Positions 808 through 60,523 of a stretch of DNA of 64,000 nt are shown in pieces. Source of the DNA: an uncultured Bacilli bacterium (GTDB taxonomy: Bacteria; Bacillota_I; Bacilli_A; RFN20; CAG-826). The notes under the pieces were generated by a model. It ran no database searches. It was not told the origin of the DNA and saw nothing but the letters and a program-made list of their open reading frames with translations. The number at the start of each line of letters is the position of its first letter. Position 1 is the stretch's first letter. Where the stretch lies: the NCBI GenBank assembly GCA_934168325.1, contig CAKPNG010000003.1:918-64917 (forward strand), written 5' to 3'. The position numbers were made by a program, and so were the translations under genes.

Positions 808-2517
808 ATGAAAAAGAGAAAATTATTTATGACATTAGCTGCTATGTCATTACTTACTTTAGGTGGTTTAGCAAGTTGCAATGGTGGTTCTTCAGATAAT
901 CCAACACCAGAGCCTACTCCAACCCCTACACCAGAACCAGAGCCAACACCTGAGCCTGCAAAACCTGCTATTAAAGCAGATAAAGAAGTTGTTACCTTAG
1001 ATGAAGTTGGTAAAGAAGATACTGTTACTTTAACTTTAGAAAACATTGAAGGTGTTCCTACTTGGGAAGCAACTGATGAAGAAGCTATTACTTTAACTCC
1101 TTCAGAAGATGGTAAATCTTGTAAGATTACTAACGTTAAAGGCGGAAAAACAGTTATAGTTACCGCTACACTTGGTGAAGTTTCAGTTGATATTACTGTT
1201 AAAAGTTCAGCTTATGGTGATACTAGAGTAGTTTATGAAGCACATAAAGAAGACGGAGCTTTATTATTTGAAGCAAAAGGATTCTTTAATGCTATCGGTA
1301 AATTAAATGATGATTTAAATAATGTAAATGGTTATATAACTAAAAAAGGTGCAACCGATAAATTATATACATTCCAAAGTGCATACTTAAATGCAGTTAC
1401 AGCAGAAGGAACATCTGATGAATTTGATTCACATGAAAAATTTACAGATGGAAAAGCTGTTGGATGGTTTAAAGATTATGCATTAACAGTTGATAGTAGT
1501 AAAAAATCATATTTATTTACTAGTTTAATTGGAAAAGATGAAAGTAATAATCCAACAAAACATGCTAAATTTAATAGAATCGAAATGTTACCTATTGGTG
1601 CTGATAAATCATTATTTAAAGATGGTAATGCAGGATTCTCAACTGCTGGTGATCCTACAAAGAATGTTTGGAGCGGATTCAGAACTGCTAACTATATAGC
1701 AGGTATGGCTGGTCCACGTTATATTACATGGGCTGATCCATATGCATGGAAAAATATGGATATGACATGGGATTTATCAAAATCTTCATTAATTCCTTCA
1801 TATAATGCTGATCAAGAAACATTTGCACAAATCTATCTTGGCTCAAGTACAGTTATTAAGAAATTAGTTGGTGTATATTTTGATGCAGGATCTATGGAAG
1901 CTAATAAAGCTTTAGCTGATGGAGCAGAAAGAGATATTTATACATTTACAGAAGTTCCTTCAGTTGATGGCGGTTTCAATATTGCAACTATGGGTGAAAG
2001 AGAAATTGGAACAACTTCAATTGGTAAAGCTAAATGGGATGCATTTAATAAATATTGGACATTCCCTGAAGTTACTGTTAATTTAAAAGTTGATATAAAG
2101 TTTAGTAATGACCCAGATTGCAGTGGAAATTACACAAGAGATTACACAATTACTGGATTTAAAGCTAATCAAGAAACAGGCAAAGTTAATTACTTAGTCG
2201 ATGCTGGAAAAGAACAAGCTAGAGTTGGTTCAAGTGAAAGATCACTTTATGGTGTTACTTTAACTCCTAAATATACAGATAAAGTATTACCAGACTTCAG
2301 TTGTGGTGCTAAATGGTTAAATGTCATTCAATCAGATTCAATCGCTGAAAAATATGAAGCACTTGTAGAAGAAGGTAAATCAAAAGAAGCTGATAATTTA
2401 CAGTGGACCGCAGGAAGAACTGTTAATTATGGTAACCAAGTCTTTACATTAGGTGCTAATAACGTTGATAGTTCAACTGATGCTGATGGTAGAAGTATAT
2501 TTAGCATTCATTATTAA
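808..2517 (+). CDS. Surface lipoprotein of unknown family (Pro/Thr linker, Ig-like Big_2-type segment, then an unassigned ~430-aa region)
   Basis: The ORF track gives 772-2517. I prefer the ATG at 808, which has AAAGGAG just upstream. MKKRKLFMTLAAMSLLTLGGLASC is a signal peptide plus lipobox. The linker reads PTPEPTPTPTPEPEPTPEP. The Ig-like stretch reads VTLTLENIEGVPTWEATDEEAITLTPSEDGKSCKITNVKGGKTVIVTATLGEVSVDITV. The C-terminal motif PDFSCGAKWLNV is shared with the next two genes. Confidence 0.8.
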   Translation: MKKRKLFMTLAAMSLLTLGGLASCNGGSSDNPTPEPTPTPTPEPEPTPEPAKPAIKADKEVVTLDEVGKEDTVTLTLENIEGVPTWEATDEEAITLTPSEDGKSCKITNVKGGKTVIVTATLGEVSVDITVKSSAYGDTRVVYEAHKEDGALLFEAKGFFNAIGKLNDDLNNVNGYITKKGATDKLYTFQSAYLNAVTAEGTSDEFDSHEKFTDGKAVGWFKDYALTVDSSKKSYLFTSLIGKDESNNPTKHAKFNRIEMLPIGADKSLFKDGNAGFSTAGDPTKNVWSGFRTANYIAGMAGPRYITWADPYAWKNMDMTWDLSKSSLIPSYNADQETFAQIYLGSSTVIKKLVGVYFDAGSMEANKALADGAERDIYTFTEVPSVDGGFNIATMGEREIGTTSIGKAKWDAFNKYWTFPEVTVNLKVDIKFSNDPDCSGNYTRDYTITGFKANQETGKVNYLVDAGKEQARVGSSERSLYGVTLTPKYTDKVLPDFSCGAKWLNVIQSDSIAEKYEALVEEGKSKEADNLQWTAGRTVNYGNQVFTLGANNVDSSTDADGRSIFSIHY

Positions 2518-2543
2518 CTAATAAAATTTAATTTAATCTAAAA

Positions 2544-2575
2544 AAGGGGATACTCGTTGAGTATCCCTTATTTAG
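2544..2575 (+). terminator. Rho-independent terminator-like hairpin
   Basis: GGGATACTC-gtt-GAGTATCCC is a 9-bp perfect stem, extendable by G-U and A-T pairs. It is followed by a T-rich stretch (TTATTT) 25 nt after the stop codon. Confidence 0.55.
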
Positions 2576-2716
2576 ATAAATGATTGATGTAGTTATTAAG
2601 AAAACAATAAAATAAGTTAACAAATATTAGTATTTAATTCTAATTTATTAGCAATAAACCTATTAAACATATACAAATATTAATATTATTAATAAAATAT
2701 TAACGAGGTAAAAAAT

Positions 2717-4228
2717 ATGAAAAAGAATATTATAACAATTGCTACGATGTTGTGTACAAGTGCAATTCTTGCATCTTGTGGAAATACCCCAAAAGAAGAT
2801 AATAAAGATAAATTTAAAGATAGTCGTTTAGATTTATTTACTGTAGTTAGTGGTGAAATGGATGGAGCTGAATTTGTTCCAGATGGAAAAACTGTTGATT
2901 TTAAATCTTTATATGAAGCTGCTAATTATGTTTATGAAAATTGTGAAAATGGTAGTTTTGTAAAAGCTAAAGATGATGCTACAAATACTAAAATCTTTCA
3001 AAAAAGAACAAGTGTAGATTCTATTAGAGGTGATAATATCTATGATCAATGGTTCTATTATGATATGGGTAATAATGGAACTTTAGATGGTTATAGTCAA
3101 TATGTAGCAGGTTACGTTGATACTAATATTGGTGAAAAATATAATAGATTATATGTTACTACTGATTGTTTAAAGCAAAGTTATCAACCTTATTATTTAT
3201 TAAGACATGAAACTTTAAAAACAGCTAGCTGGAACTTATTACCATTATTAGATACATCTATTAGATATAATCCTCATGCTTTTACAGGTATGAGAGAAAT
3301 CACTTATAAATTTGATTTAACTCAATCTAAAATTAGACCTTCTTATTCAAAAGATCAAAAAGTCGAACCTTTAATTACATTATCTCAAGTTGATTCATAT
3401 AACTGGTCTAACCAAGGTATTTATATGGATACAGATACTGGTAATTGGTATTATCTTAAAGGTGAAACTCAATCTGATTCTAAAATTTTAGATTATGATA
3501 ACAAAGAAGTAATATTAACATCTACTTGGGATAAAGAAAAACAAGAATATACACCAGATGGTGATGTTAAAATGACTCTTACCTATGTATTTGATAAAGA
3601 AGAAGAAACTTGGACTAATGATTTAGCAATTGAAGTTACATATAAAGATGGAACAACTAAATCATTTAAGAAAAATTATGATTATGTAAATATTAATGGT
3701 CGTGGTACTCCTAGAGCTAATATTTCTTTAGATTTAGTTGCAGGTAACGATAAAGTTGAAGAAGGAAGTTATGCACCTGATTTTATGTGTGGAGCTTACT
3801 TTAAAAATATTGTTGTTAGTGAAGCTAAGGGCACTGTACCTGAAGGACTTACTGATGAAGAATACGGTGGCGATAGTGATATGTGCTGTAAACCTGGTGA
3901 AACTTATAATTTATTAGCAAGTGCTGAGAAAAATGATGCAGATTGTGAAATTATTTTAGATAATTATGGCTTAATTAATTATCATAATGATGTTAAAGAT
4001 AAAGATATTTATGATATTAGTTATGAACAAATCGCACCTACTACTTTAAGAACTAAAGAAGTATTAGAGGTTGAACAAGAAATTGCTAAAATTAAAGATA
4101 CTGATACTAAAGATAGTGCAATTGTTATAAAAACATTACCTAAATTTAATAAGTTAAGTGCAGTTCAACAAAAATTAGTTACTAGAATTGATGGTTACAC
4201 TCAATTAGAAAAAGCTATTGAAAGATAA
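2717..4228 (+). CDS. Surface lipoprotein, paralogue 2 of the unknown family
   Basis: GAGG lies upstream of the ATG. MKKNIITIATMLCTSAILASCGN is a signal peptide plus lipobox. The N-terminal module (FKSLYEAANYVYEN...KIFQKRT) and the C-terminal PDFMCGAYFKNIVV motif are shared with its neighbours. Confidence 0.8.
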   Translation: MKKNIITIATMLCTSAILASCGNTPKEDNKDKFKDSRLDLFTVVSGEMDGAEFVPDGKTVDFKSLYEAANYVYENCENGSFVKAKDDATNTKIFQKRTSVDSIRGDNIYDQWFYYDMGNNGTLDGYSQYVAGYVDTNIGEKYNRLYVTTDCLKQSYQPYYLLRHETLKTASWNLLPLLDTSIRYNPHAFTGMREITYKFDLTQSKIRPSYSKDQKVEPLITLSQVDSYNWSNQGIYMDTDTGNWYYLKGETQSDSKILDYDNKEVILTSTWDKEKQEYTPDGDVKMTLTYVFDKEEETWTNDLAIEVTYKDGTTKSFKKNYDYVNINGRGTPRANISLDLVAGNDKVEEGSYAPDFMCGAYFKNIVVSEAKGTVPEGLTDEEYGGDSDMCCKPGETYNLLASAEKNDADCEIILDNYGLINYHNDVKDKDIYDISYEQIAPTTLRTKEVLEVEQEIAKIKDTDTKDSAIVIKTLPKFNKLSAVQQKLVTRIDGYTQLEKAIER

Positions 4229-4233
4229 ATTTT

Positions 4234-5613
4234 ATGAATATAAAGAATATATCTTATTATTTAGGAATAGGTCTTATTAGTTTATCCTTAGTTGGATGTG
4301 GTAAAACTGATAATCCTCCAATTAATGAACCTTCTATTACAAATCCAAATATTTATGACGAGGTAAAAGAAGATTCTAATAAGATCAAATTAACTGCTCC
4401 ATTTTCTATTTATAATGAAGATGGTTCTATTCCAGTAGATTTAAAATATAAAGGAAGTAAATTAGAATCTAATACGTTTACTAATTTATATAAAGCAATA
4501 AGAATTGCTGGAGAAAATTCATCAACTAAGATTAAATTACAAGTTCAAGATAGTAATTTTAATCAAATATTTAAAAGAACAAAAGCAAGTAATTGGTATG
4601 TTTTTGATGGTCATGACTATGTTGGTAATGATACAAAAACTAATGCCTTAACTTATACTACAACTCATAAAGATTCATATGCTATTTCAGGAGATGGTAA
4701 AGGATATTCTTATTTAGGTCGAGATGATTATAGAGAAGATATGAATTTACAATCAAATATATTAGAGCTTAATGCTGGTGCATATAATTATATGTTTTCT
4801 ACTACTGGTGTAGGAAAAGGCGAAAACGGTACTAATATAAATGGTTTTGCATATGCTAATGCTAATGTTAGATTAAGTGAAATGAAATACCGTCAAACTG
4901 AAGATGGAGATCATTGGAATGCTTATATTTTCTTTAATTTACAAGCTAAAAATCATGCAGATCTCGGCTTAATTGGTACAGTTAGTGGTGATAAATTAGT
5001 TTGGAAATTATTTAGAAATTGTGGTTCTAAATCACATGGAACACAAGGATTCTTTGTTTATCAAGATAAAATAATTACAACATCTAAATATTATGATAGT
5101 ACTACAAAAGAATATTCTGGATGTGATGATTTAAATTTTGAAGCTGTTGGATATAGTAATGGATGGATTTTAAATGTTACTAATTTAGCAACAGGTAAAG
5201 TAGAATCATTTAGTGATTTACATTATGAAGAAGATGGAAAAACTCCACTTATTGAAAATGGTAATGATGTAACTACTTATTATAGAGTTCTTGTAGCATC
5301 ATCTTATTGTCCAGTTGTTGGAAATGTATGGAACTGGGATTGTGGTGCTAAAACTGAAAATGTAGTTTGGGATAATATTAAAATTAGTAGATATATTGGT
5401 GATGATATTACTGAATATCGTAAAGATAGTACTATAAAATATGATTTTTATCCTGATACAGATTTATTAAGAGATGGATATTCTCAAGGTGCTTTTGCTA
5501 GTAGTTTTGAATACGGTACTAGAAAAGAAGATGGTAAATATAAATCTGGTAATACTTATAAAAAAGGTGATAAATATTTAATACAAAGCGTTTGTTATAC
5601 AAACAAGTGGTAA
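4234..5613 (+). CDS. Surface lipoprotein, paralogue 3 of the unknown family
   Basis: MNIKNISYYLGIGLISLSLVGCGK is a signal peptide plus lipobox. It shares the module TFTNLYKAIRIAGE...QIFKRTK and the C-terminal WDCGAKTENVVWDNIKI motif. It starts 5 nt after the previous stop. Confidence 0.8.
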   Translation: MNIKNISYYLGIGLISLSLVGCGKTDNPPINEPSITNPNIYDEVKEDSNKIKLTAPFSIYNEDGSIPVDLKYKGSKLESNTFTNLYKAIRIAGENSSTKIKLQVQDSNFNQIFKRTKASNWYVFDGHDYVGNDTKTNALTYTTTHKDSYAISGDGKGYSYLGRDDYREDMNLQSNILELNAGAYNYMFSTTGVGKGENGTNINGFAYANANVRLSEMKYRQTEDGDHWNAYIFFNLQAKNHADLGLIGTVSGDKLVWKLFRNCGSKSHGTQGFFVYQDKIITTSKYYDSTTKEYSGCDDLNFEAVGYSNGWILNVTNLATGKVESFSDLHYEEDGKTPLIENGNDVTTYYRVLVASSYCPVVGNVWNWDCGAKTENVVWDNIKISRYIGDDITEYRKDSTIKYDFYPDTDLLRDGYSQGAFASSFEYGTRKEDGKYKSGNTYKKGDKYLIQSVCYTNKW

Positions 5614-5628
5614 TAGGAGGATTTAACT

Positions 5629-7281
5629 ATGAGAAAGAAAGGACATTTAATTGCTACAAGTTTAGCATTAATTAGTATAATTACTTCATGTGGAAGTGCA
5701 ATTGATCCTACAGCTGATTGGACAATTGATGTAAATAAAAATAAGAGTAATATTACTTTAAATACTTACTTCCCTAATAGTACTAAAAGTAATGATTTCT
5801 TTCAAAATAGTTATATTCCTAAACAATTAGAAAAAATTACTGGTTATAAAGTTAAATATAATCAAACTAGTGAAGGAGCAGCTGATTCTCAAGTTCAATC
5901 AATGTTAACTGGAAAAGAAAAGATTGATATGCTTAAGATATCTCCTACATTATTTAATAATTATGTTACTCAAGGTTATTTTACAGATTTAACTGATGGT
6001 ATCGATAAATATTGTCCTAATCTTAAAACTTGTGCAAAGATAACTAAAGAACAATGGGATGCTGTTACTTATAATGGTAAAATTTATGCTTTACCTGAAA
6101 TTGGTCATACTTCAATGGTTAATGTTGGACTTATTTGGAATTTTGATCATTTAAAGAGTGTAAATATTAATAAGCTTCCTAAAACTATTACTGAAGTTGA
6201 TGAAGCTTTAAAAGCTTTACAAACTAAATATGGTAATGATACTAATTATCATGCTTTAGGACTTCCAGGAACAATGAGCGAAGCTAATCCTTTTGCTGCT
6301 GCTTTTGATGTTCCATGTAATTTCTTTATTAACGATAATAATGAAATTGAAAATATGTTATTTTCTAGTCGTATGGAAGAATATTTAAAATATATGAACA
6401 CTTTAGCAACTGGTAATATTATTGCTCAAGGTTGGTCATCTCAAACAGAAAGTGCTTGTATGAATAACTTTGTTAGTGGTTTTAGTAGTTGTATGGTTAT
6501 ATCTTATTGGAATGTTACTAATTTAAGAAGTTCATTAATTTCTTCTTATAAAGGATTTCCAAGTGATGTTATAACTGAAAATAGTAAAAAAGATTATGTT
6601 TATGGTAAAAATAATCATCAATATGGTTTTGCTAGCGATGATGCTTTAGTTCAATGGGAAGTCTTTATTAAAGGAGATGGAAAATTTGGAACTAATGTTC
6701 AAACTGAAGGTAGATCTAGAGATTCTAGAGGAGTTGGTTATTATATAACTATTCCTGTTGCAAGTAGTAAAAATGCTGCTTATACATTAGATTGGATTAA
6801 TTATAAATTAACTGAAGAAGCAACTATTTTAAATGTTGCTGGTACTGAAGGAATTCATTATGAAAGAGTAACTAAAGATGATAAAGATGCAGTTAAACTC
6901 TTGACTGGTACTGATCCTGAAGAATATGTAAAAGTTTTACCTAAATTCTATGATGAAATTAGTGGAACTAGTCAATATCAAACATCTGTTAATGGAGATG
7001 TTGCTAGAAAATGGTGGCCTGTAGCTGAAGTTGGATTTAATGCTTGGGAAGTATTAATGATTGATGAAAGTAGAGTCATATTAGATCCATTTGCTTTACA
7101 TCCAGTTTTAACTGAATTTTCAAAAGTTGATTTATTAGCTAGAAATTATGTAGTTACTCAATTACAAAATATTATAAATAAAGGAATCGATAAATTAGAG
7201 AATGCTAGAAAGACTTATAAGAGTCGTTTCTGGAAAGAAGCTGTTAAAAACGAAGTAAATAATTGGTATAAAAATAAATAA
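5629..7281 (+). CDS. ABC transporter extracellular solute-binding lipoprotein (large family-1 oligosaccharide SBP, LplA/YtcQ-like)
   Basis: There is a GGAGG RBS. MRKKGHLIATSLALISIITSCGS is a lipobox. At 550 aa it has the size typical of this SBP class, and two CUT1-type permease genes follow directly. Confidence 0.8.
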   Translation: MRKKGHLIATSLALISIITSCGSAIDPTADWTIDVNKNKSNITLNTYFPNSTKSNDFFQNSYIPKQLEKITGYKVKYNQTSEGAADSQVQSMLTGKEKIDMLKISPTLFNNYVTQGYFTDLTDGIDKYCPNLKTCAKITKEQWDAVTYNGKIYALPEIGHTSMVNVGLIWNFDHLKSVNINKLPKTITEVDEALKALQTKYGNDTNYHALGLPGTMSEANPFAAAFDVPCNFFINDNNEIENMLFSSRMEEYLKYMNTLATGNIIAQGWSSQTESACMNNFVSGFSSCMVISYWNVTNLRSSLISSYKGFPSDVITENSKKDYVYGKNNHQYGFASDDALVQWEVFIKGDGKFGTNVQTEGRSRDSRGVGYYITIPVASSKNAAYTLDWINYKLTEEATILNVAGTEGIHYERVTKDDKDAVKLLTGTDPEEYVKVLPKFYDEISGTSQYQTSVNGDVARKWWPVAEVGFNAWEVLMIDESRVILDPFALHPVLTEFSKVDLLARNYVVTQLQNIINKGIDKLENARKTYKSRFWKEAVKNEVNNWYKNK

Positions 7282-8335: not shown

Positions 8336-9241
8336 ATGACTGGTTTTATTAGTTTAAAAAAGAAAAGATTAAGAAAAAGTATTAAAAAACCTACTGGTGA
8401 TCGTGTATTTAATGGTTTAAATATCTTCTTTTTAGTTCTTTTTTGTTTAATAGTTATTATTCCTTTATTAAATTTAATTGCTTTTGCTTTTTCTACTGGT
8501 ACTAGAAATAGTGAAGTTACTTTTTTACCAGTTGGATTTACATTTGATATGTTTTCTTATGTTATGAAGGACGTTGCTTTTTGGAGAAGTGCTTTAAATT
8601 CTGTTATTATCACAGTTTGTGTTACTTTCCTTTCTAATTTATTTATGGCAATGGCTGCTTATCCTTTATCTAAACCTGATTTTCCATTTAAAAAAGGTAT
8701 CTTAACATTCTTTATTATCACAATGCTATTTAGTGCTGGTATTGTTCCTGCTGTTTTACTTTTAAGAGATTTAGGGTTATATGGAACTATTTGGGGTGTA
8801 ATTATAATTTCTATTAATAATGTTTTTAATATGTTACTTTATAAATCTTTCTTTGAAGGATTACCTAAAGAAACTATTGAAGCAGCTGAAGTTGATGGGG
8901 TTAGTAATTTCCAAATGTTTATTAAGATAGTTTTACCAATGTCTTTACCTGTATTTGCTAGTTGTGCATTCTTTACAATTGTTGGTACATGGAATTCTTA
9001 TAGTGGTGCTTTAATGTTTATTGGTACGACTAGTGATAAAGAAGCATTCTGGCCATTATCTTTATATATTTATAATTTATTACAATATAGTCCATCTACT
9101 GATCCTACTAGTTTCTTAAATACTAATTTAACTAATGTTCAATCAGCATCAATTATTATTAGTGTTATTCCTATTTTAATTATTTATCCATTTGTTATTA
9201 GATATATTAAATCTGGTATTACTTTAGGTAGTGAAAAGTGA
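8336..9241 (+). CDS. ABC sugar permease (LplC/YtcP-like, CUT1 family)
   Basis: It has the EAA loop IEAAEVDGVSNFQMFIKIVLPMSLP and six predicted helices. It starts 1 nt after the previous stop. Confidence 0.85.
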   Translation: MTGFISLKKKRLRKSIKKPTGDRVFNGLNIFFLVLFCLIVIIPLLNLIAFAFSTGTRNSEVTFLPVGFTFDMFSYVMKDVAFWRSALNSVIITVCVTFLSNLFMAMAAYPLSKPDFPFKKGILTFFIITMLFSAGIVPAVLLLRDLGLYGTIWGVIIISINNVFNMLLYKSFFEGLPKETIEAAEVDGVSNFQMFIKIVLPMSLPVFASCAFFTIVGTWNSYSGALMFIGTTSDKEAFWPLSLYIYNLLQYSPSTDPTSFLNTNLTNVQSASIIISVIPILIIYPFVIRYIKSGITLGSEK

Positions 9242-9251
9242 GGATATAAAT

Positions 9252-10379
9252 ATGTATAGTGATTTAGAAAGAAACGAAATATTTTTAAAAGCTAAAGAAA
9301 GTGCACCTATTTATAATAATGATGATTTAATGTTTTATTATGCCTTAAATAAAGATTTATTTACTTTATATGGGACAGGTATTAAAGAAAAGAATACATA
9401 TTATAGATTTTCTAATGAAGATATTAATAATATTGCTAAAGTAAGTGCTGATGTTAGTTTTTTAGCTACTCATAGTGCTGGTATTAAATTAAGATTTAAG
9501 ACTAATTTAAGAATTATAAGAATTAGAGTATTAGAAAATGGAATTCATGATATGCGTAATATGAATTTTATGGCACAATGTGGATTTGATTTATATTCCA
9601 AAGAAGATGGTGACAAAAAATTTATTTATCAAAATACATCATTTCCTAATTATATAGATAATAAGAAATATATTGCTGATATTGGGTTATATAATGATAA
9701 AAAAGAACGTGATATATTAATTCATTTTCCATTATATTGTGGGGTTATTTATTTAGAAATTGGATTAGAAAAAGATGCAATTGTTAAACCTTCATTTTAT
9801 GAAAATGAAGGTAAGATAGTATGCTATGGAACATCTATCTTACAAGGTGGATGTGTTTCTAGACCTGGACTTAATATTACTAATGTATTAAGTAGAACAT
9901 TTTCTAAAGATATTATTAATTATGGCTTTAGTGGAGCTGGATTAATGGAATTAGAGGTTGCAGAAATTATTAATAAAATTGATGATATTGATTTATTAAT
10001 AATTGATGCTGAAGCTAATGCTGGGTGTGATAAATGGATGTATGAAAATTTTGATATTTTCTTAAATGTATTTTATAAGAAATATCCTAATCTTCCTATT
10101 ATTATTATGAATAAAACTCAAATGGCTATTGATTACCAATTTGAGAAAAATAAATTATTAAAAGAATTCTATGATGATTTTTTAATTAACAAAGTTAAAG
10201 AATATCAAGATAAAGGGAAAAATATTATTTTTATAAATAATTACAATCTATTTGATATTTATAAAAATAATTTTGCTGAATGCACAGTTGATGGGGTTCA
10301 TCCAAATGATCTAGGAATGTATCTATTAACTAATAATTATATAAAAGCAATTAAACAAATTACTAATAAAAACTATTAG
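9252..10379 (+). CDS. SGNH/GDSL-type hydrolase with N-terminal GxDLY domain (probable carbohydrate O-acetylesterase), cytoplasmic
   Basis: The track starts at GTG 9231. The ATG at 9252 is preceded by GTGAGGA. The sequence has the GxDLY motif (QCGFDLYSKEDG), an SGNH block I variant (YGTSILQGG) and block V (DGVHPNDLGM). There is no signal peptide. Confidence 0.7.
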   Translation: MYSDLERNEIFLKAKESAPIYNNDDLMFYYALNKDLFTLYGTGIKEKNTYYRFSNEDINNIAKVSADVSFLATHSAGIKLRFKTNLRIIRIRVLENGIHDMRNMNFMAQCGFDLYSKEDGDKKFIYQNTSFPNYIDNKKYIADIGLYNDKKERDILIHFPLYCGVIYLEIGLEKDAIVKPSFYENEGKIVCYGTSILQGGCVSRPGLNITNVLSRTFSKDIINYGFSGAGLMELEVAEIINKIDDIDLLIIDAEANAGCDKWMYENFDIFLNVFYKKYPNLPIIIMNKTQMAIDYQFEKNKLLKEFYDDFLINKVKEYQDKGKNIIFINNYNLFDIYKNNFAECTVDGVHPNDLGMYLLTNNYIKAIKQITNKNY

Positions 10380-10402
10380 ATGAATGAAAAAAAGGAGAAT
10401 AT

Positions 10403-11905
10403 ATGAAGATCGTATTATTGCCTTTAGATGAAAGGCCATGCAATTACCTATATCCTAAAGAGTTACCTCTACAAAAAAATGTCAATATTGTTACACCAAC
10501 AAAAGATATTTTAAGCTTAAAAAAAGATGTTTGTAATATTGATAAAATTTCTGATTGGCTTAAAAAAGAATGTTTTGATGCTGATTTTGCAGTGATTTCT
10601 TTAGATACACTCCTTTTTGGAGGTATTATACCTAGTAGATTACACCATCAAAGTTATGAAGAATTATGTGAAAAAATTAAAGTATTAGAAGATATTAAAA
10701 ATGTTAATAAAAACATTAAAATTTATTGTAATGAACTTATAATGCGTTGCCCTTCATATTCTTTAAGTGATGAAGAACCATTCTATTTTGATGAATGTGG
10801 AAAAGAAATATTTGAATTAGGTGGAATAATAGATAAAGAAGAACAAGGTATAATTGAAATTAATTCACCTAGAAAAATGGAATTATTAAATATTATTAAA
10901 AAAGAATATTTAGATGATTTTTTATCTCGTAGAGATATAAATATTAAAATATTGTTACATAATTTAGATTACGTTAATAAGGGTATCATTGACTTTTTTG
11001 TAATACCACAAGATGATTGTAGTGAATTTGGATTTCCTTCAAAAGATCAAAGATTAGTTAAAGCAAAAATTAAAAATGATAATTTATTTAATAATGTAAT
11101 TATGTATCCTGGAGCTGATGAAATTGGCTTAACTTTAATTACTAGAGCAATTAATATTTATAATAATTATAGACCTAAAGTCTTTGTTAATTATTGTTCT
11201 GAATTAGGAAAAAATGCTATTCCAATGTTTGAAGATCGACCAATTTCAGAGACTATTAAATATCATTTATTTAGTACTAATTGTCTAGAAGTTTATTCTT
11301 TAATGGAAGCTGATTGTGTATTAAATATTAATTCTGGTAGTGAATTTGTTCCTAAATGGGATAATAGAAAAGAATTAATATTTGGTAAAAATAGAAATTT
11401 ATTAGCGTTTATAGATTTTATTAAATATGCTTTAAATAATAATAAAATAGTTGGTATTGCTGATGTTTGTTATTGTAATGAAGCTGATAAAGAATTAATG
11501 AATTTATTAAAAGATGATAATTTATTATTAAAAATTCATTCTTATGCTGGATGGAATACTTCAAGTAATACTTTAGGTACAACAATTGCTAATATGATAA
11601 GTTATTATTATTCGAAAGATGAAATTAATAAGAATTATAGTCTTATTTATCGTTATTTAGATGATTATATTTATATGGGTATAGTTAGAGATATTATTAA
11701 TAATAAAATAGTTGATTTAAATAATGGTATTACTAGATTTAATTTAAAATCTGACACTAAAGAATTTGAAGAACTTAGTAAAGATTTAATTATAAAAGAA
11801 GCTAATAAATTTGGTATTAATGTAGATAAATATTTTAAGAAATTTGATGTTTCTTTTATATGGAATAGAACTTTTGAGATCGAATTTGATACCGAAAGGA
11901 TATAA
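10403..11905 (+). CDS. DUF4127-like protein of unknown function
   Basis: It has an AAGGAG RBS and is 500 aa. As I recall, the N-terminal MKIVLLPLDERPCNY matches the conserved LPLDERPCN start of the DUF4127 family. There is no signal peptide. Confidence 0.45.
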   Translation: MKIVLLPLDERPCNYLYPKELPLQKNVNIVTPTKDILSLKKDVCNIDKISDWLKKECFDADFAVISLDTLLFGGIIPSRLHHQSYEELCEKIKVLEDIKNVNKNIKIYCNELIMRCPSYSLSDEEPFYFDECGKEIFELGGIIDKEEQGIIEINSPRKMELLNIIKKEYLDDFLSRRDINIKILLHNLDYVNKGIIDFFVIPQDDCSEFGFPSKDQRLVKAKIKNDNLFNNVIMYPGADEIGLTLITRAINIYNNYRPKVFVNYCSELGKNAIPMFEDRPISETIKYHLFSTNCLEVYSLMEADCVLNINSGSEFVPKWDNRKELIFGKNRNLLAFIDFIKYALNNNKIVGIADVCYCNEADKELMNLLKDDNLLLKIHSYAGWNTSSNTLGTTIANMISYYYSKDEINKNYSLIYRYLDDYIYMGIVRDIINNKIVDLNNGITRFNLKSDTKEFEELSKDLIIKEANKFGINVDKYFKKFDVSFIWNRTFEIEFDTERI

Positions 11906-11910
11906 ATAAA

Positions 11911-12774
11911 ATGAATTCTATTTGCTTAGATATCGGTGGTACATCAATTAAAGGTGGATATTTTTCTAATAATAATTTGTTAGAAACTTTTTCTATTCCT
12001 AGTAATGGTAAATTAGGAAGAGTAGAAATACTAAAATCTATTGATTTTATTATGAATGAAATTATTAAGAAATATCCTCATTTTGATTATATTGGTATAT
12101 CTAGTGCAGGTAATATTGATTATAAAAACGGTATATGTATATATGCTAGTAATAATTTAAAAGATTGGACTAATTTTAATATTAAAGAATATTTTAATGA
12201 TAAATATCATAAATTAGTATTTGTTGAAAATGATGCAGTATGTGCTTTACTTGGTGAAATTTATCCTACTTATTTAGATAAGACAATATTTATGATAACT
12301 TTAGGAACTGGAGTAGGTGCTACTTTATATAAAGATAAGAAAATATATTATGGTAATGATTTTGATTTAGGTAAATTTGCTCATCATATTATTAAAGATA
12401 ATGGTAATTTATGTGATTGTGGGAATAAAGGATGTGCTGAAAAAGAAATAAGTGCTACTGGATTAAAAGTAATTATTAATAAAGTTTTTAATAAAGAAAT
12501 TAGTATTATTGAATTATTTAATTTATTTAGAAATAAAGATATATTAGCTAAAAAGGTATTAGATGAATATTTTTATTATTTAAAGAAATATTTAGATTAT
12601 ATTATTAATGATATTGAAGTTGATCATATTATTATTGGTGGTGGACTTATTAATTCTAAAGATGTTTTTGAGTTATATTTAGATTCATATAAAGATATAA
12701 TAATATATGCAGTTAATGGTAATAATGCTGGCATTATTGGTGCTAATTTATTAATTAATAGAGAGGTATTATGA
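11911..12774 (+). CDS. ROK-family sugar kinase (candidate N-acetylhexosamine/ManNAc kinase)
   Basis: It has DIGGTSIKGG (phosphate-1 motif), VENDAVCALLGE (ROK motif) and CDCGNKGCAEKE (ROK zinc motif). The substrate is inferred only from context (nanE lies downstream). Confidence 0.8.
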   Translation: MNSICLDIGGTSIKGGYFSNNNLLETFSIPSNGKLGRVEILKSIDFIMNEIIKKYPHFDYIGISSAGNIDYKNGICIYASNNLKDWTNFNIKEYFNDKYHKLVFVENDAVCALLGEIYPTYLDKTIFMITLGTGVGATLYKDKKIYYGNDFDLGKFAHHIIKDNGNLCDCGNKGCAEKEISATGLKVIINKVFNKEISIIELFNLFRNKDILAKKVLDEYFYYLKKYLDYIINDIEVDHIIIGGGLINSKDVFELYLDSYKDIIIYAVNGNNAGIIGANLLINREVL

Positions 12775-14606
12775 TTAATTTAAATAAGAGTATAAATGAA
12801 TTAAAAATTGAATTTGGTGAAAATTCTTTTTTTAAGGCTAATCCAAATATAAAAATAATTAATACTAGTAGTAATGAATGTTTTTATAATAAATATAAAA
12901 ATGAATTAATTATAAAAACTAATGATAATTCAATGATTTTTAGATTAATTTATGAAACATTTAATTATGATTTCTCTAATGATTTTTATATTAAATTAAC
13001 TAAGAAAATTGATAAATTATCAATTATGGTTGATATGGCTAGAAATAATGTTCTTAAAGTAGATACGATTAAGAAACTTATTAGATATTTAGCTATTATG
13101 GGCTATTCTAAATTTAAAATTTATTTAGAAGATGTATTTGATGTTATCCATGAACCTTATTTTGGCTATCTTAGAGGAAAATATAATAAAGAAGAATTAA
13201 TAGAAGTAGTTGATTATGCTTCAATATTTGGTATTGAAGTTATTCCTTGTATTCAAACATTAGCTCATTTAAATTGTTTACAATTTTTCTGTATGTATCG
13301 TTGGAATTTTGATATTGATGATATTTTACTTGTTGATAGTGATATTACTATTAGATTAATCACTAATATGATTAAAACTTTAAAAGATATATTTAAAACT
13401 GATGTAATTAATATTGGAATGGATGAAGCTCATCATTTAGGAAGAGGGCAATATTTAGATAAATATGGTTATGAAGATCGTTTTAAAATATTTGCTCATC
13501 ATTTAAATAAAGTATTAGAGATTGCTAAAAAATATGGATTTAAATGTGAAATGTGGAGTGATATGTTCTTTGATAATACTTATTATAGCGGAGAAGATAC
13601 TAAAAAGCATAATTACTTAAAAGATATCGATAAAGATTTAACTTTAATTTATTGGGATTATAATGCTAATGATATTAATTATTTTGATAAAAAGATAAAA
13701 CAACATTTAGAAATAACTAAAAATATTAGTGTAGCTGGTGGAGCTTGGAAATGGTTAGGACATGCTCCAAATAATACATATAGTATTGTCAATTTAAAAA
13801 ACTTTATTGAAGCATCTTATAAAAATAAAATTAAAGATTTTATGATAACTTGTTGGGGTGATAATGGTGGCGAAGCTTCTATATTCTCTATATTACCAAG
13901 TTTATCGTATGCATCAAATTTCAATTATTTTGAAATAAAAGACTGCAGAAACCACTTATTTTATGAGTTATCTACTTTAAAATTTGATGATTTTATGAAA
14001 CTAGATTATGTAAATAAAACTAGAGAAGAATTTAATAAAGATGATTTAAATTCTTTAAGTAGAATTTATTTATATAATGATTTATTATTAGGAGTATATG
14101 ATACATGTGTCAATGATAATCAATCAACGATATATAAAAATGTATCTATAGAATTAGCGATTTTTAAAGATAATAATAAATTTGGATATATATTTGATAC
14201 TTTAAGTAAACTAGCTGATTTATTATCTATAAAAGTAGATCTAGGTATAAAACTTAGAAAAGCTTATAAAGATAAAAATGAAAATGAACTTAAGAACATG
14301 ATTAATTTATTAGATGAATTAGATAATAAAATCGATATATTTTATGATGCTTTTTATTATCAATGGAATAAAGAAAGCAAAAGCAATGGATTTGATGTCC
14401 AAGATTTAAGAATCGGAGGGATTAAGCAAAGAATAAAGACGGCAAAAAGAAAAATTAATGATTATTTAGATAAAAAAATAACAAATATTGAAGAATTGGA
14501 GGAAGATTTACTAGATTTTTATGGTCAAGTTGATAACTATTTTAAACCTATTTCTATAGTTGATTCACGTTATCGCCATATGTGCTCAGTAAATGTTAAT
14601 GATTAA
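12771..14606 (+). CDS. GH20-like beta-N-acetylhexosaminidase, cytoplasmic
   Basis: The TIM-barrel motifs appear in GH20 order: SIMVDMARN, KIYLEDVF, IPCIQTLAHL, INIGMDEAHHLG (Asp-Glu catalytic pair position), MWSDM and CWGDNGGE. There is no signal peptide. The start overlaps the previous stop (ATGA). Confidence 0.6.
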   Translation: MINLNKSINELKIEFGENSFFKANPNIKIINTSSNECFYNKYKNELIIKTNDNSMIFRLIYETFNYDFSNDFYIKLTKKIDKLSIMVDMARNNVLKVDTIKKLIRYLAIMGYSKFKIYLEDVFDVIHEPYFGYLRGKYNKEELIEVVDYASIFGIEVIPCIQTLAHLNCLQFFCMYRWNFDIDDILLVDSDITIRLITNMIKTLKDIFKTDVINIGMDEAHHLGRGQYLDKYGYEDRFKIFAHHLNKVLEIAKKYGFKCEMWSDMFFDNTYYSGEDTKKHNYLKDIDKDLTLIYWDYNANDINYFDKKIKQHLEITKNISVAGGAWKWLGHAPNNTYSIVNLKNFIEASYKNKIKDFMITCWGDNGGEASIFSILPSLSYASNFNYFEIKDCRNHLFYELSTLKFDDFMKLDYVNKTREEFNKDDLNSLSRIYLYNDLLLGVYDTCVNDNQSTIYKNVSIELAIFKDNNKFGYIFDTLSKLADLLSIKVDLGIKLRKAYKDKNENELKNMINLLDELDNKIDIFYDAFYYQWNKESKSNGFDVQDLRIGGIKQRIKTAKRKINDYLDKKITNIEELEEDLLDFYGQVDNYFKPISIVDSRYRHMCSVNVND

Positions 14607-16821
14607 TATGATTAAATATGTACAAAACAAAAATATTGTCAATGTAAGTAATAATTTAGATGCTATTAACTTAGAATTTTTTAGTAATGGAACTATTAGA
14701 ATTTTTAAAGAGAAAAACTCGACTAAGTTATATGAATTAGCTTTTCCTAAGAAATTTTTAAAGTTTAATGTTTCTCAAAATAATAATGAAATAGCTATTG
14801 AATATTTGAATTATAGATTTATTATAAATGGAAAATTAGAAATAAAAGTTGAGAATAGCAATGATATTATTTTAAATATCGACTTTTCTACTAAATTTTG
14901 TGATGTAGAAAAACGTAATTATTATTCTACAGTATTAAATATTAACGAAGATTCATATGTTTTTGGCCTTGGTGATAAGATGGGATTTTTAGACAAAAAA
15001 GGTTATTATTATGAATCTCATTCAACTGATGATCCAACTCATCAAGATGAATTATATCCTGCTTTATATAAGTCAATTAATTATATTTTGTTTGAAAACA
15101 ATAAGCATTATTTCTCTATATTTTTACCAAGTACTTTTAGATATACTTTTGATGTTTGTAAAACTAATTTAGATAAAGTAATTATTAACAATTTTGACAG
15201 TGCTAATGATTTATTCTTATTTTTAGGAAATAATCCAAAAGAAGTTACAAGAATATATAGTGATTTAGTTGGACATCCATATTTTATTAGTTTAAAAACT
15301 TTAGGATATCATCAATCAAGATGGTCATATGAAAATGAAGAAATGGTGATGGATGTTTATAATAAATTTAAACAATATAATTTGCCATTAGATTATATTC
15401 ATTTAGACATTCATTATATGGATGGATATAGAGATTTTACATATGATAAGAATAGTTTTTCTAATCTTAAGAATTTAACGGATTTTTTGAAAAAGGATAA
15501 TGTTGGAATAATTGCTATTAATGATGCTGCAATTAAAGTCGATGAAAATTTTGATATATATAGATATATAATCGATAATAAATTAGTTGGAACTCTTAAA
15601 AATAAACCTTATGTTAATGTAGTTTGGCCAGGAGATAGTGTATTCCCAAGTTATATTGATCCAAAATGTAGAGAATATTTTGAAAATAAAGCTAGTGATT
15701 TTATAAAAGAAACAGGTATAAGCGGTATTTGGAATGATATGAATGAACCTGCTTCATTTAAGGGTGAATTACCAAATAATGTTATATTTAAAAATAGTAA
15801 TAAAAAGATCACTCATGCTGAAATTCATAATATTTATGCTGAACACATGGTTAAATGCTTTACTAATGTCTTTAAAAAAGATGATTTAAGACCATTTAAT
15901 TTTTCTAGAGCTGGTTTTGCTACTACTAGTAAGTATGCATTTTGTTGGAATGGTGATAATTTCTCTTTATGGCACCATTTAAAATATTCTATTACCCAAT
16001 CTTTAAGTTTATCATTATCTAATTTTATGTATAATGGCGATGATATTGGAGGATTTGGAGGAGATTCTAATAAAGAATTATTATTAAGATGGTTAGAAGC
16101 GAATTTATTTTTACCATTTTTAAGAAATCACTCAACTATAAATAGTAAGCATCAAGAACCTTATGCTTTTGATGAATATACTATTAAAACATATAAAAAA
16201 TTCTTAGATATTCGTTATAAATTTATCTCTTATTTATATGATTTAGCTTATCGAATGAATAAATATGGAGAATTGATGTCTAGACCTTTATTTTATAATT
16301 ATCCATTTGATAAAGAATGCTTAAAAATAAATGATCAATATATGGTTGGTGATAATTTATTAGTTGCTCCTATTATTGATAAATCTATGACTACTAGAGT
16401 TGTATATTTACCTGAAGGATATTGGATTAATTATTTCACTAATGAAGAATTTAAAGGTAATCAATATATCGTTTGTAATGCTAATTTAGATGAATCTATA
16501 TATTTTATTAAAAAAGATTCAATTATCGTTAATTATGAAAATTTACTTCATATAAATAAAAAAGAAATTACTGAATTAGTAATTCATCTATATGGAAATA
16601 AAGGTGAATATATTAATTATGAAGATGATGGGGAGTCATTAAATTATCAAAAAGAAGAATACAATCTTTATAAAATTAAGTTTAATAAAAATAAATTTAG
16701 TTTAGATACAGTTCATAAAAAATATGTATCTAATTATAAAACCATAAAGATTATTAAAGATGGTAAAGAAAAAGTAATAGCATTTGATTATAAAATAAAT
16801 ATTAATTTGGAGGATTTATAA
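14593..16821 (+). CDS. GH31 alpha-glycosidase (alpha-glucosidase/alpha-xylosidase class), cytoplasmic
   Basis: It has the GH31 nucleophile motif GIWNDMNEPA, followed by WNGDN and GDDIGGFGG. An alternative start is the ATG at 14608, just after the upstream stop. Confidence 0.85.
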   Translation: MLMINMIKYVQNKNIVNVSNNLDAINLEFFSNGTIRIFKEKNSTKLYELAFPKKFLKFNVSQNNNEIAIEYLNYRFIINGKLEIKVENSNDIILNIDFSTKFCDVEKRNYYSTVLNINEDSYVFGLGDKMGFLDKKGYYYESHSTDDPTHQDELYPALYKSINYILFENNKHYFSIFLPSTFRYTFDVCKTNLDKVIINNFDSANDLFLFLGNNPKEVTRIYSDLVGHPYFISLKTLGYHQSRWSYENEEMVMDVYNKFKQYNLPLDYIHLDIHYMDGYRDFTYDKNSFSNLKNLTDFLKKDNVGIIAINDAAIKVDENFDIYRYIIDNKLVGTLKNKPYVNVVWPGDSVFPSYIDPKCREYFENKASDFIKETGISGIWNDMNEPASFKGELPNNVIFKNSNKKITHAEIHNIYAEHMVKCFTNVFKKDDLRPFNFSRAGFATTSKYAFCWNGDNFSLWHHLKYSITQSLSLSLSNFMYNGDDIGGFGGDSNKELLLRWLEANLFLPFLRNHSTINSKHQEPYAFDEYTIKTYKKFLDIRYKFISYLYDLAYRMNKYGELMSRPLFYNYPFDKECLKINDQYMVGDNLLVAPIIDKSMTTRVVYLPEGYWINYFTNEEFKGNQYIVCNANLDESIYFIKKDSIIVNYENLLHINKKEITELVIHLYGNKGEYINYEDDGESLNYQKEEYNLYKIKFNKNKFSLDTVHKKYVSNYKTIKIIKDGKEKVIAFDYKININLEDL

Positions 16822-16823
16822 AT

Positions 16824-18116
16824 ATGAAATGTGTTAATGTTGCAATATTTGGCTTAGGTAATAGAGGTAATACTTATGGGGAATTAGCTCTTATTAAATC
16901 TAATAAAATGAAAGTTGTTCAAATTGTAGACAATAATGAGACAGCTTTAAATTATGCAAAAAACTTATATAAATTAAATGATGAAGATTGTTTTTCTAGT
17001 TTTGAGAAATGGTTAAAAGCTCCTAAAAAGGCTGATGCAGTCATTAATTGTACAATGGACCAATATCACATCGAAACAACAATGCCATTATTTAAATTGG
17101 GATATGATGTATTACTAGAAAAACCAATTTGTAATAATCCAGAAGAATTAGTAATGTTAATGAATGAATCAAAAAAATACAATAAAGTATTAATGATTTG
17201 TCACGTTTTAAGATATACTCCATTTTATTCACGTATTAAAAAGATAATTGATTCTAAAGAATTAGGTGATTTAGTAAGTATTGAAATGGCAGAACACGTT
17301 TACACTCCTCATATGATGTCAAGTTATGTTAGAGGAAAATGGAGAAGCGAAAAGGAATGTGGTAGTGCAATGATTATGGCTAAATGCTGTCATGATACTG
17401 ACTTAATGTGCTGGCTTAATAATGGAGATAAACCAGATTATGTTTCAAGTTTTGGAAGAAGAAGTGTTTTTGTTCCTAAAAATAAACCAAGCGATGCTAC
17501 TGATAGATGTTTGACTTGTCCACATAAAGAAACTTGTAGATATTCTTGCTATTTTTACTTATTAAATAAAGCTCAAGATCCAATTGTATTTAATAATGCA
17601 GTTCCTGGAAAAAGATGGGATGAAGTTACAGTAGAAGATAAGACAAAAGTATTTATGGAATCTCCTACATTAGGAAGATGTGCTTTTGATGGTCCTCAAG
17701 ATTTAGTCGATCATCAAATGACTATTGTTGACTTTAATAATGGTGTAACTTGCTCACTTGCTATGATTGGTGGAACTTCTTATCCATGTCGTACAATTCA
17801 TATAATTTTAACTAATGGTGAAATCTTTGGAACGTTCGAATCTAATAAAATAACCACCAGAAAGTACATAAAAGAAAAGTTTTCTAGAGAAACTAAGAAT
17901 ATTTATTTAGGTGATGTTGGTAAAGGTCATGGTGGTGGAGATATCCGATTAGTAGAAGATTTCATTGACTATTTAAGAACAAGAAAATTGTCGATTTCTC
18001 AAACTAATATTGATACTTCAATCGATGGACATTTGGTTGGAATGGCCGCTGATTTAAGTGATAAAAATAGAAGAACCGTCGAAATAAGTGAAGATAGAAG
18101 GTTAATTTTAAAATAA
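16824..18116 (+). CDS. Gfo/Idh/MocA-family NAD(P)-dependent oxidoreductase with a Cys-rich insertion
   Basis: It has the N-terminal Rossmann motif VAIFGLGNRGNTYG and the EKP motif (LLEKPI). An unusual CLTCPHKETCRYSC cluster lies at 17508-17549. Confidence 0.8.
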   Translation: MKCVNVAIFGLGNRGNTYGELALIKSNKMKVVQIVDNNETALNYAKNLYKLNDEDCFSSFEKWLKAPKKADAVINCTMDQYHIETTMPLFKLGYDVLLEKPICNNPEELVMLMNESKKYNKVLMICHVLRYTPFYSRIKKIIDSKELGDLVSIEMAEHVYTPHMMSSYVRGKWRSEKECGSAMIMAKCCHDTDLMCWLNNGDKPDYVSSFGRRSVFVPKNKPSDATDRCLTCPHKETCRYSCYFYLLNKAQDPIVFNNAVPGKRWDEVTVEDKTKVFMESPTLGRCAFDGPQDLVDHQMTIVDFNNGVTCSLAMIGGTSYPCRTIHIILTNGEIFGTFESNKITTRKYIKEKFSRETKNIYLGDVGKGHGGGDIRLVEDFIDYLRTRKLSISQTNIDTSIDGHLVGMAADLSDKNRRTVEISEDRRLILK

Positions 18117-18117
18117 T

Positions 18118-18792
18118 ATGAAACTCAATGAAGGATTAATTGTTTCTTGCCAAGCTTTAAAAGATGAACCAATGTATGGTGGTGATTCAATCAAAAAATT
18201 TGCTTATGCAGCTTATTTAGCTGGTGCAAAAGGAATTAGAGCTAATACAGTTAAAGATATAAATGGAATTTATCGTAAATTAAAGGGCCAATTACCAATA
18301 ATTGGTATTATTAAAAAAGTTTACGATGATTCAGAAGTTTATATTACCCCAACCTTAAAAGAAGTTAAAAAATTAATTAAATCTAAATGCGATGTAATAG
18401 CTCTTGATGCTACATTACGTTATAGACATAATGGTGAAAAACTTGAAGATTTAGTTAATTATATTAGATTACATTCTAATAAATTAATTATGGCTGATTG
18501 TGCAACTTTAGAAGAAACTAAAAATGCTGAAAAACTTGGATTTGATTATGTATCTTCAACTTTAAGAAGCTATACTGAAGAAACTAAAGGTATAAAAATA
18601 CCTGATATAGAATTTACAAAGTCGTTATTAAAAGAAATCACAAAAACTAATGTTATTTTTGAAGGAGGAATTGATTCTCCTCAAACTTTAAAAAGTGTAT
18701 TAAATACTGGTGTTAAATATATAGTAATTGGTGGTGCTATAACTAGACCATTACAAATAACAAAAAGATATTTAAAGGAATTTGAAAATTAA
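18118..18792 (+). CDS. nanE: N-acetylmannosamine-6-phosphate 2-epimerase
   Basis: GLIVSCQALKDEPMYG is the NanE signature. It also has IRANTVKDI, IIGIIKKVY and ALDATLRYRH. At 224 aa it has the typical NanE length. Confidence 0.8.
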   Translation: MKLNEGLIVSCQALKDEPMYGGDSIKKFAYAAYLAGAKGIRANTVKDINGIYRKLKGQLPIIGIIKKVYDDSEVYITPTLKEVKKLIKSKCDVIALDATLRYRHNGEKLEDLVNYIRLHSNKLIMADCATLEETKNAEKLGFDYVSSTLRSYTEETKGIKIPDIEFTKSLLKEITKTNVIFEGGIDSPQTLKSVLNTGVKYIVIGGAITRPLQITKRYLKEFEN

Positions 18793-18889
18793 CAAAAATT
18801 AATATTTTTTAATTTGAAATTATGCAAAATATATATAAAATTTAAGAAATATTAAGTTTATTATAGAATATAGTTAGCGAGGATTGATT

Positions 18890-20767: not shown

Positions 20768-20774
20768 TTAATTT

Positions 20775-26390: not shown

Positions 26391-26401
26391 AGGGGTTTAT
26401 T

Positions 26402-44150: not shown

Positions 44151-44165
44151 TAGGAGGTTATCTTT

Positions 44166-46818: not shown

Positions 46819-46842
46819 TGCAAATTAGAAAGGAGTGATAAT

Positions 46843-49377: not shown

Positions 49378-49378
49378 T

Positions 49379-51674: not shown

Positions 51675-51684
51675 TTAAATTTAT

Positions 51685-58634: not shown

Positions 58635-58635
58635 G

Positions 58636-60513: not shown

Positions 60514-60523
60514 GGAGACTAAT

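Follow-up and report, generated by a model that had tools for sequence, protein, structure and literature searches.

What do three consecutive lipoprotein genes of no recognisable family contribute to the sugar-uptake locus that they precede? The question arises in a 64,000-nucleotide stretch of DNA from an uncultured Bacilli bacterium (contig CAKPNG010000003.1; this whole stretch is called the window), where the genes, here P1, P2 and P3, are followed by a substrate-binding lipoprotein (SBP) and two permeases of an ATP-binding cassette (ABC) importer. The answer that we favour, at a probability of about 0.45, is that P1–P3 are diverged substrate-capture proteins of a locus harvesting a teichoic-acid-like or otherwise phosphodiester-linked bacterial glycopolymer. 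The three genes, as open reading frame (ORF) calls, and the layout of their products, which share a domain of about 400 amino acids (aa) that we call the P-domain, are as follows.

808–2517, plus strand: P1 lipoprotein gene, 569 aa; signal peptide and lipobox at residues 1–24, a Pro/Thr/Glu-rich linker at about 25–55, an immunoglobulin (Ig)-like module at about 56–135, the P-domain at about 136–569
2717–4228, plus strand: P2 lipoprotein gene, 503 aa; signal peptide and lipobox at 1–21, the P-domain at about 31–440, a basic helical C-terminal module at 441–503 (63 aa)
4234–5613, plus strand: P3 lipoprotein gene, 459 aa; signal peptide and lipobox at 1–22, then the P-domain; the most divergent paralogue of the three

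A signal peptide is present in each protein, and the lipoboxes read LASC in P1 (Cys24), LASC in P2 (Cys21) and LVGC in P3 (Cys22); by the signal peptidase II pattern (SPase II, lipobox L-[AS]-[GAS]-C) all three classify as bacterial lipoproteins. All members of the P2 and P3 orthologue sets have the lipobox cysteine, as do at least 90% of the P1 set. P1, P2 and P3 are each held at the cell surface by an N-terminal lipid. The G+C content of the window is about 25%, and the code is the standard bacterial one; in-frame TGA is absent from P1–P3, where tryptophan is encoded by TGG. The Ig-like region of P1 is annotated as Big_2 or Flg_new_2 in some of its orthologues. The C-terminal module of P2 (window 4037–4225, about 63 aa) is helical and basic, with an isoelectric point (pI) of 9.1; it matches no Pfam family, and very large surface proteins of other bacteria repeat it in tandem, up to 21 times. 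A 112-aa ORF on the minus strand (708–1046), antisense to the start of P1, has a Gly/Ser/Val repeat opposite the Pro/Thr-rich linker and is almost certainly spurious.

Searches of Pfam and NCBIfam with P1–P3 gave nothing above noise, and the P1, P2 and P3 family profiles retrieved zero matches among PDB sequences. Metagenomes yielded 15 orthologues of P1, 40 of P2 and 44 of P3, full length, about 40–65% identical and almost all unannotated. The P2 family profile, searched exhaustively, produced 164 clusters at 50% identity, many of them surface proteins of 800–2800 aa; by our count, roughly half match the P-domain itself and the rest only the P2 C-terminal repeat. Outside the domain, the large P-domain relatives carry just Ig-like (Big_2), Flg_new, leucine-rich (LRR_5) or unnamed helical repeats. 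Judged by its annotated domains this architecture is adhesin-like, and it includes no known catalytic domain.

Pairwise BLASTP is nearly blind to any relation among P1–P3, its best hit (E = 0.002) being confined to the C-terminal motif of P1 and P2. Profile–profile comparisons (hhalign) were made on alignments trimmed of signal peptides, as these had inflated the untrimmed scores, and reversed-sequence controls were added, which gave probabilities below 1% and E of 0.09–0.7. The P1 family matches the P2 family at 95% (E 2.6e-8) and a broad P2-superfamily alignment at 98.2% (E 3.9e-14), the latter over 358 columns that include the N-terminal module. For P3, the direct match to the P2 family is weak (56%, E 1e-4), and comparisons with P1 and with the broad P2 alignment are non-significant. 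The link required an intermediate pair, P0215/P0242, which matches the P3 family at 98.6% (E 1.2e-15) and the P2 family at 98.2% (E 3.2e-14). In the merged alignment, only Ala, Leu, Gly, Arg, Cys, Gly, Ala and Asn are identical in all three families (one position being D/N). The shared alanine of the N-terminal helix is A162 in P1, A68 in P2 and A88 in P3; the shared arginine is R478, R333 and R351, respectively; and the strand [D/N]xxCGAxxxN occupies the same columns in P1 (496–505), P2 (355–364) and P3 (367–376).

On these profile links, P1, P2 and P3 are paralogues that separated long ago within a single unnamed superfamily, the P-domain, which is newly defined here and whose hosts are uncultured gut Bacillota and Mollicutes-like bacteria. 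An earlier reading of the same DNA, made from its letters and ORF list (below, the sequence-only reading), had proposed three consecutive lipoprotein genes of no recognisable family, divergent paralogues with common N-terminal and C-terminal motifs. The coordinates, the signal peptides and every motif that it quoted were confirmed. No confident CAZy, carbohydrate-binding module (CBM) or peptidase match was found by sequence, and both shared motifs fall in homologous columns, a check that had been set beforehand as one that could refute the paralogy.

The AlphaFold models of P2 (predicted local distance difference test, pLDDT, 89; predicted template modelling score, pTM, 0.87) and P3 (pLDDT 90.5, pTM 0.86) are almost all beta and agree one-to-one, in order, in more than 20 secondary-structure elements. 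The best PDB matches of both models found by Foldseek are YncM (4hfs) and its homologue CPAVM1 (8xai) of Bacillus subtilis. These are followed for P2 by neprosin, glucanases of glycoside hydrolase (GH) family GH16 and legume lectins, and for P3 by scytalidoglutamic peptidase, alginate lyases of polysaccharide lyase family PL7, the phage tailspike TSP2 and HC7. The Foldseek probability is 0.8–1.0 to YncM, the G1 and G3 peptidases, GH16, PL7 and the legume lectins, and viral structures gave generic jelly-roll matches only. We are confident that the predicted fold of P2 and P3 is an enlarged jelly-roll beta-sandwich of the concanavalin A (ConA)-like lectin/glucanase superfamily, and P1 would join it by profile homology. 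A lectin-like or jelly-roll fold is what the sequence-only reading had asked of its glycan-binding idea. Its comparison with SusD has to be dropped, as SusD is alpha-helical and resembles tetratricopeptide repeats (TPR), and a SusD_RagB Pfam match is absent from these almost all-beta proteins.

The alignments were then read for catalytic residues. Motifs of the P families are collinear with those of G1 peptidases, TNLATGK with ENLTTGQ and PDFMCGAYFKN with FADFGSVTFTN. The hhalign comparison of the P families with G1 sequences (SGP plus AGP) is not significant (E 0.016–0.28, probability below 3%), and P1–P3 have no Peptidase_G1 or Neprosin match in Pfam at E up to 1. In a motif-anchored register read by eye, without superposition, the G1 residue Gln53 corresponds to Gly234 in P2 and Leu246 in P3, and Glu136 to Leu or Cys. 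P2 Q233 and E250 are invariant among the P2 orthologues and variable in the wider superfamily. No acidic residue (and hence no Glu) is common to all three paralogues in the merged alignment, and no catalytic Gln/Glu or Glu/Glu pair conserved superfamily-wide was found. None of P1, P2 and P3 contains the strict GH16 motif E-[ILVMF]-D-[ILVMFW]-x-E; the looser E-x-D-x-x-E is confined to P1 205 and P2 47, where the acidic residues are not conserved in orthologues. The residues that are invariant within single families map, by motif order, largely to the cleft-forming strands of G1 peptidases, and among them the polar ones fit a putative ligand site with diverged specificity. Such family-specific invariants include Q233, D238, E250, Q252, R333, D339 and D355 in P2, and N229, N235, D243, R261, H268, D298, D299, H330 and R351 in P3.

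The genes around P1–P3 provide the second line of evidence. The relevant features of the window are as follows.

2547–2567, no strand assigned: terminator-like GC-rich hairpin GGGATACTC-gtt-GAGTATCCC, bordered by an A-run and a T-rich tail, in the P1–P2 spacer
5629–7281, plus strand: SBP, 550 aa, directly after P3
7306–8334 and 8336–9241, plus strand: two BPD_transp_1 permeases of a CUT1-type ABC importer
9231–24153, plus strand: in order, a GxDLY/SGNH esterase (9231–10379), DUF4127 (10403–11905), a ROK kinase, GH20C, GH31, a GFO/IDH/MocA oxidoreductase, NanE, an MsmK-like ATPase, GH36 and a 399-aa ORF
24143–24967, minus strand: AraC-family regulator (by Pfam), which in relatives borders the start of a CE2-GDPD-NAGPA-P1-P2-P3 string
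25236–26390, plus strand: CE2-like esterase lipoprotein (by Pfam and N-terminus)
26402–28339, plus strand: GDPD phosphodiesterase with a signal peptide (by Pfam and N-terminus)
28329–29117, plus strand: GNAT-like (NAT_N/GNAT_C) protein (by Pfam)
29114–30559, plus strand: NAGPA phosphodiester-glycosidase lipoprotein (by Pfam and N-terminus)
30867–31931, plus strand: cytoplasmic CE2-like esterase (by Pfam)

The lipoprotein SBP, the two permeases and the MsmK-like ATPase (ABC_tran plus OB_MalK) make up a CUT1-type importer; the orthologous SBP carries PF01547. The products from the GxDLY esterase through GH36 have no signal peptides; GH31 is closest to alpha-glucosidases and GH36 to alpha-galactosidases. 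The 399-aa ORF closing this set matches nothing in Pfam and has a single hydrophobic segment, at its N-terminus. The MsmK-like ATPases encoded at 18884–20767 (627 aa) and 39271–41238 (655 aa) are unusually long, the former being extended at its N-terminus by about 60 aa, many of them Lys or Glu.

We compared 14 loci, the window and 13 related ones, in which P2 is 26–95% identical to that of the window; the metagenome-assembled genomes (MAGs) carrying the latter are labelled Mollicutes (95% identity to the window), Ca. Onthovivens, Erysipelotrichaceae, Bacilli and Anaeroplasmataceae. The string P2-P3-SBP-permease-permease-GxDLY-DUF4127 is contiguous in all 14, and P1 is present in six. The usual order in the related loci is AraC, CE2, GDPD, (GNAT-like), NAGPA, P1, (second GDPD), P2, P3, SBP, permeases, GxDLY, DUF4127, then ROK-GH20C or GH31. 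CE2, GDPD and NAGPA stand directly 5' of P1 in most relatives, with synteny to the P genes in L001, L003, L006 and L007, and relative to them the CE2-GDPD-GNAT-NAGPA block of the window is displaced by about 20 kb downstream. Between P1 and P2, L001, L003, L006 and L011 carry another GDPD gene, divergent from the first and coding for about 650 aa; in its place the window and the 95%-identical L005 have the hairpin-bearing 200-bp spacer. In L018, with the far more distant member P0102, the module is kept and Metallophos enzymes replace GDPD; a Metallophos lipoprotein is present in both L013 and L018, and some transporter-free distant members adjoin a Metallophos or Exo_endo_phos gene. DUF4127, the GxDLY/SGNH esterase and the NAT_N/GNAT_C protein accompany P2-P3-SBP even in these two most distant loci. 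DUF4127 has no PDB relative, and a literature search found no mention of it. From this gene content we infer that the P proteins therefore operate together with exported phosphoesterases.

Just 5' of the P2 homologues, the more distant loci encode lipoproteins with an unnamed domain of about 150 aa, of the pattern GWRxYxVxDxxGR...NGYGGP...NPA...PEGGFAxTxHG (L008:258-1985, L010:6372-9735, L012:6128-9816 and L013:6137-8125). It occurs in one to three copies, fused to Flg_new, collagen-like repeats or Metallophos, and also at the C-terminus of some P-domain proteins (P0102 and P0110). Neither PDB nor Pfam holds a match to it, and the window lacks it; the suggestion that it is NAGPA-like was rejected on comparison.

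These observations bear on what the sequence-only reading said of the locus. The SBP and two permeases directly 3' of P3, and the lack of signal peptides in GH20C, GH31 and GH36, are as it described. That the triplet heads a glycan-import operon fits P2 and P3, which are tightly spaced with the SBP (gaps of 5 nt between P2 and P3 and 15 nt between P3 and SBP), and may not apply to P1, which is separated from P2 by the 200-bp spacer with its terminator-like hairpin and hence may not be co-transcribed with the importer. Constant co-occurrence with CUT1 transporters is true of the P2-P3 orthologues, in 14 of 14 loci and in the company of glycosidase genes, and lapses among more distant superfamily members. 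The claim that P1–P3 are the only candidates for surface processing fails: the CE2 lipoprotein, the GDPD and the NAGPA lipoprotein (25236–30559) are exported and in most relatives adjoin P1, so that the P proteins are not the sole candidates.

Which polymer, then, would be harvested? The enzymes imply glycerol-phosphate, N-acetylhexosamine (HexNAc)-1-phosphate, N-acetylmannosamine, alpha-glucose, alpha-galactose, beta-N-acetylglucosamine and esters, a set that corresponds to teichoic acids and related polymers of bacterial walls; GlpQ, of the GDPD type, is an established teichoic-acid hydrolase (PMC7086022). By gene content alone, these enzymes suit a teichoic-acid-like polymer, or another bacterial glycopolymer with phosphodiester links, better than they suit mucin or plant glycans, the substrates implied by the sequence-only reading. 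Sialidase, NanA, fucosidase and beta-galactosidase are all missing from the window, which disfavours mucin, and the recurrent partners of the P genes are GDPD, NAGPA, Metallophos and Exo_endo_phos. A mucin or sialic-acid substrate, considered in view of NanE and the ROK kinase, was rejected for the lack of those four enzymes and for the alpha-glucosidase and alpha-galactosidase types of GH31 and GH36. The literature search found nothing directly relevant on a teichoic-acid utilisation locus.

The mechanism that we propose makes P1–P3 the substrate-capture layer of a conserved nutrient-harvesting locus. The concave sheet, which carries most of the family-specific invariant polar and aromatic residues, would bind the polymer at the membrane surface, and the three paralogues may have diverged to recognise different features of it. 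At the surface, the CE2 esterase would strip esters, and GDPD and NAGPA would cut phosphodiester links; the fragments would be taken up by the 550-aa SBP and the ABC permeases. In the cytoplasm, GH20C (a beta-N-acetylhexosaminidase), the alpha-glucosidase, the alpha-galactosidase, the ROK kinase and NanE would convert them to central metabolites.

Several observations weigh against this scheme. The closest solved structures are mostly enzymes, and every orthologue family retains many invariant Asp, Glu, His and Arg residues of its own, so that family-specific catalysis is possible. The template modelling (TM) scores of the P2 and P3 models to known folds are just about 0.5, because the P-domain is twice the size of those proteins. 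Mature P1–P3 are acidic (pI 4.6–5.4), a poor fit to direct binding of the polyanionic teichoic acid backbone; simple electrostatic binding of a polyanion is unsupported in view of this overall charge. Some distant P-domain members sit amid housekeeping genes and are not always linked to a transporter. Finally, gene content is the sole basis of the substrate assignment, in a locus whose DUF4127, GNAT-like protein and GxDLY esterase are uncharacterised.

The alternative that survives best, less likely than substrate capture and rather improbable in itself, is that at least one of P1–P3 is a new endo-acting depolymerase (a glycosidase, lyase or phosphodiesterase) that makes the first cut at the surface in a jelly-roll cleft, the other paralogues being specialised or inactive. 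The best structural neighbours are indeed cleft enzymes, namely the G1 and G3 glutamic peptidases, GH16, PL7, the tailspike TSP2 and the HC7 mucinase, and the locus has no recognisable exported glycosidase. Invariant acids and histidines are available as well, for instance D238, E250, D339 and D355 in P2 and D243, H268, D298, D299 and H330 in P3, on strands matching the active-site sheet of G1 peptidases by motif order. However, no acidic pair is conserved either superfamily-wide or among the three paralogues, the GH16 motif is missing, the large relatives look like adhesins, and the exported GDPD and NAGPA could already break down a phosphodiester-linked polymer.

The boldest form of this idea, in which the P-domain is a new polymer-active surface class derived from an eqolisin/YncM-like jelly roll, forms with GDPD, NAGPA and CE2 the first described dedicated teichoic-acid (phosphoglycan) utilisation locus, and supplies in at least one of P1–P3 the missing endo-depolymerase, seems to us doubtful. 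If such a teichoic-acid utilisation locus is real, wall-less gut Bacilli would feed on the cell-wall polymers of Gram-positive neighbours.

P1–P3 could instead serve a wall-less bacterium as adhesins or as variable surface antigens, adjacent to the importer by accident. The distant members found in very large repeat-rich surface proteins, sometimes amid housekeeping genes, and the Ig-like module and PT-rich linker of P1 are in line with this. Yet P2, P3 and the SBP are adjacent in 14 of 14 loci from several MAG lineages despite P2 identities down to 26% (26–95%), with gaps of 5 and 15 nt in the window, and the orthologues, full length and 40–65% identical, are not hypervariable; we consider this reading improbable.

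The least probable reading, and a very poor prospect, is that of surface glutamic-type peptidases or mucinase-like glycopeptidases (cf. eqolisins, neprosin, CPAVM1 and HC7) releasing peptides or glycopeptides for uptake: the Foldseek probabilities (1.0 to YncM/CPAVM1, neprosin and scytalidoglutamic peptidase, 0.97–0.99 to HC7, a characterised di-glutamate mucinase, PMC13003899) and the collinear motifs are set against the non-significant G1 profile comparison, the replaced Gln53 and Glu136 in the by-eye register, the lack of Peptidase_G1 and Neprosin matches, and a locus with no peptide transporter, peptidases or mucin-type glycosidases (sialidase, fucosidase, beta-galactosidase).

With substrate capture retained as the preferred role of P1–P3, the P-domain family itself is new and unnamed, while its fold class and probable role, surface capture or processing in a glycan-uptake locus, are of known kinds. 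The family now has a fold assigned with confidence and, in its genomic setting, strictly conserved partners, namely an ABC importer and surface phosphodiesterases. It gives a concrete and testable entry into the acquisition of complex carbohydrates by reduced, probably wall-less gut Bacilli lacking classical secreted glycosidases, suggests that bacterial wall polymers with phosphodiester links may be a nutrient niche, and brings several uncharacterised families (those of DUF4127, the GxDLY esterase and the NAT_N/GNAT_C protein) into a single pathway.

Elsewhere in the window, a second CUT1-type sugar locus (39271–53273) combines the longer MsmK-like ATPase, two permeases and a 579-aa SBP lipoprotein with a LacI regulator, an inosine-uridine nucleoside hydrolase, DUF624 and a PfkB kinase. 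Three exported proteins without Pfam matches are encoded there as well, at 46843–49377 (844 aa, signal peptide), 49379–50482 (367 aa, lipoprotein) and 50475–51674 (399 aa, lipoprotein), which are not P-domain proteins. Three genes at 58140–62305 resemble an electron-bifurcating [FeFe] hydrogenase, with a 2Fe-2S thioredoxin-like subunit, a NuoF-like flavoprotein and the Fe-only hydrogenase large subunit.

Among known systems, YncM (4hfs) and CPAVM1 (8xai) of B. subtilis are the nearest in structure, being exported Bacillota beta-sandwich proteins like the P proteins (Foldseek probability 1.0, TM about 0.5 on the target). They differ in size (about 200 aa, whereas the P-domain has about 400), are not lipoproteins, show 9–14% Foldseek identity and were not retrieved by the profile searches of PDB sequences. 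YncM is uncharacterised and is mentioned in the literature mostly for its signal peptide; CPAVM1 has been reported as a secreted protease. We know of no transporter link for either.

The eqolisins (G1, scytalidoglutamic peptidase, 2ifw/1s2b) and neprosin (G3, 7zva) have the ConA-like jelly-roll topology in common with the P-domain, as well as several collinear motifs, including the C-terminal D-F-x-G-x-x-F-x-N strand, the one that the sequence-only reading had flagged. The P-domain, in contrast, is twice the size, has an extra N-terminal alpha/beta module and, in the motif register read by eye, does not conserve the Gln53/Glu136 pair of G1 (Glu/Glu in neprosin). HC7 of Bacillus cereus (8pn5), a beta-sandwich enzyme bridging glycoside hydrolases and peptidases, is among the structural matches of P3, but a weaker one (E about 2e-3), and the P locus lacks mucin-type glycosidases. 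HC7 is reportedly the di-glutamate mucinase described by Narimatsu et al. in 2024, a study cited in PMC13003899.

By gene content alone, the locus resembles the GlpQ/PhoD scavenging of teichoic acids in B. subtilis and Staphylococcus aureus. There, polymers of glycerol phosphate are attacked by exported enzymes of the GDPD and metallophosphoesterase types, classes that have homologous counterparts beside the P genes. That system, however, is a phosphate-starvation response with no dedicated oligosaccharide importer, glycosidase set or P-domain.

SusE, SusF and other surface glycan-binding proteins (SGBPs) of the Bacteroidota belong to a different fold family, with no SusE or SusF Pfam match in P1–P3, and serve a TonB/SusC transporter, whereas the P proteins stand beside an ABC importer in single-membrane, Bacillota or Mollicutes-like hosts. 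Like P1–P3, they are lipid-anchored, beta-rich and unrecognisable in sequence, are encoded in tandem beside an importer and occur as divergent paralogues within one locus. SGBPs of the SusE/SusF type would be the likely functional analogue of P1–P3.

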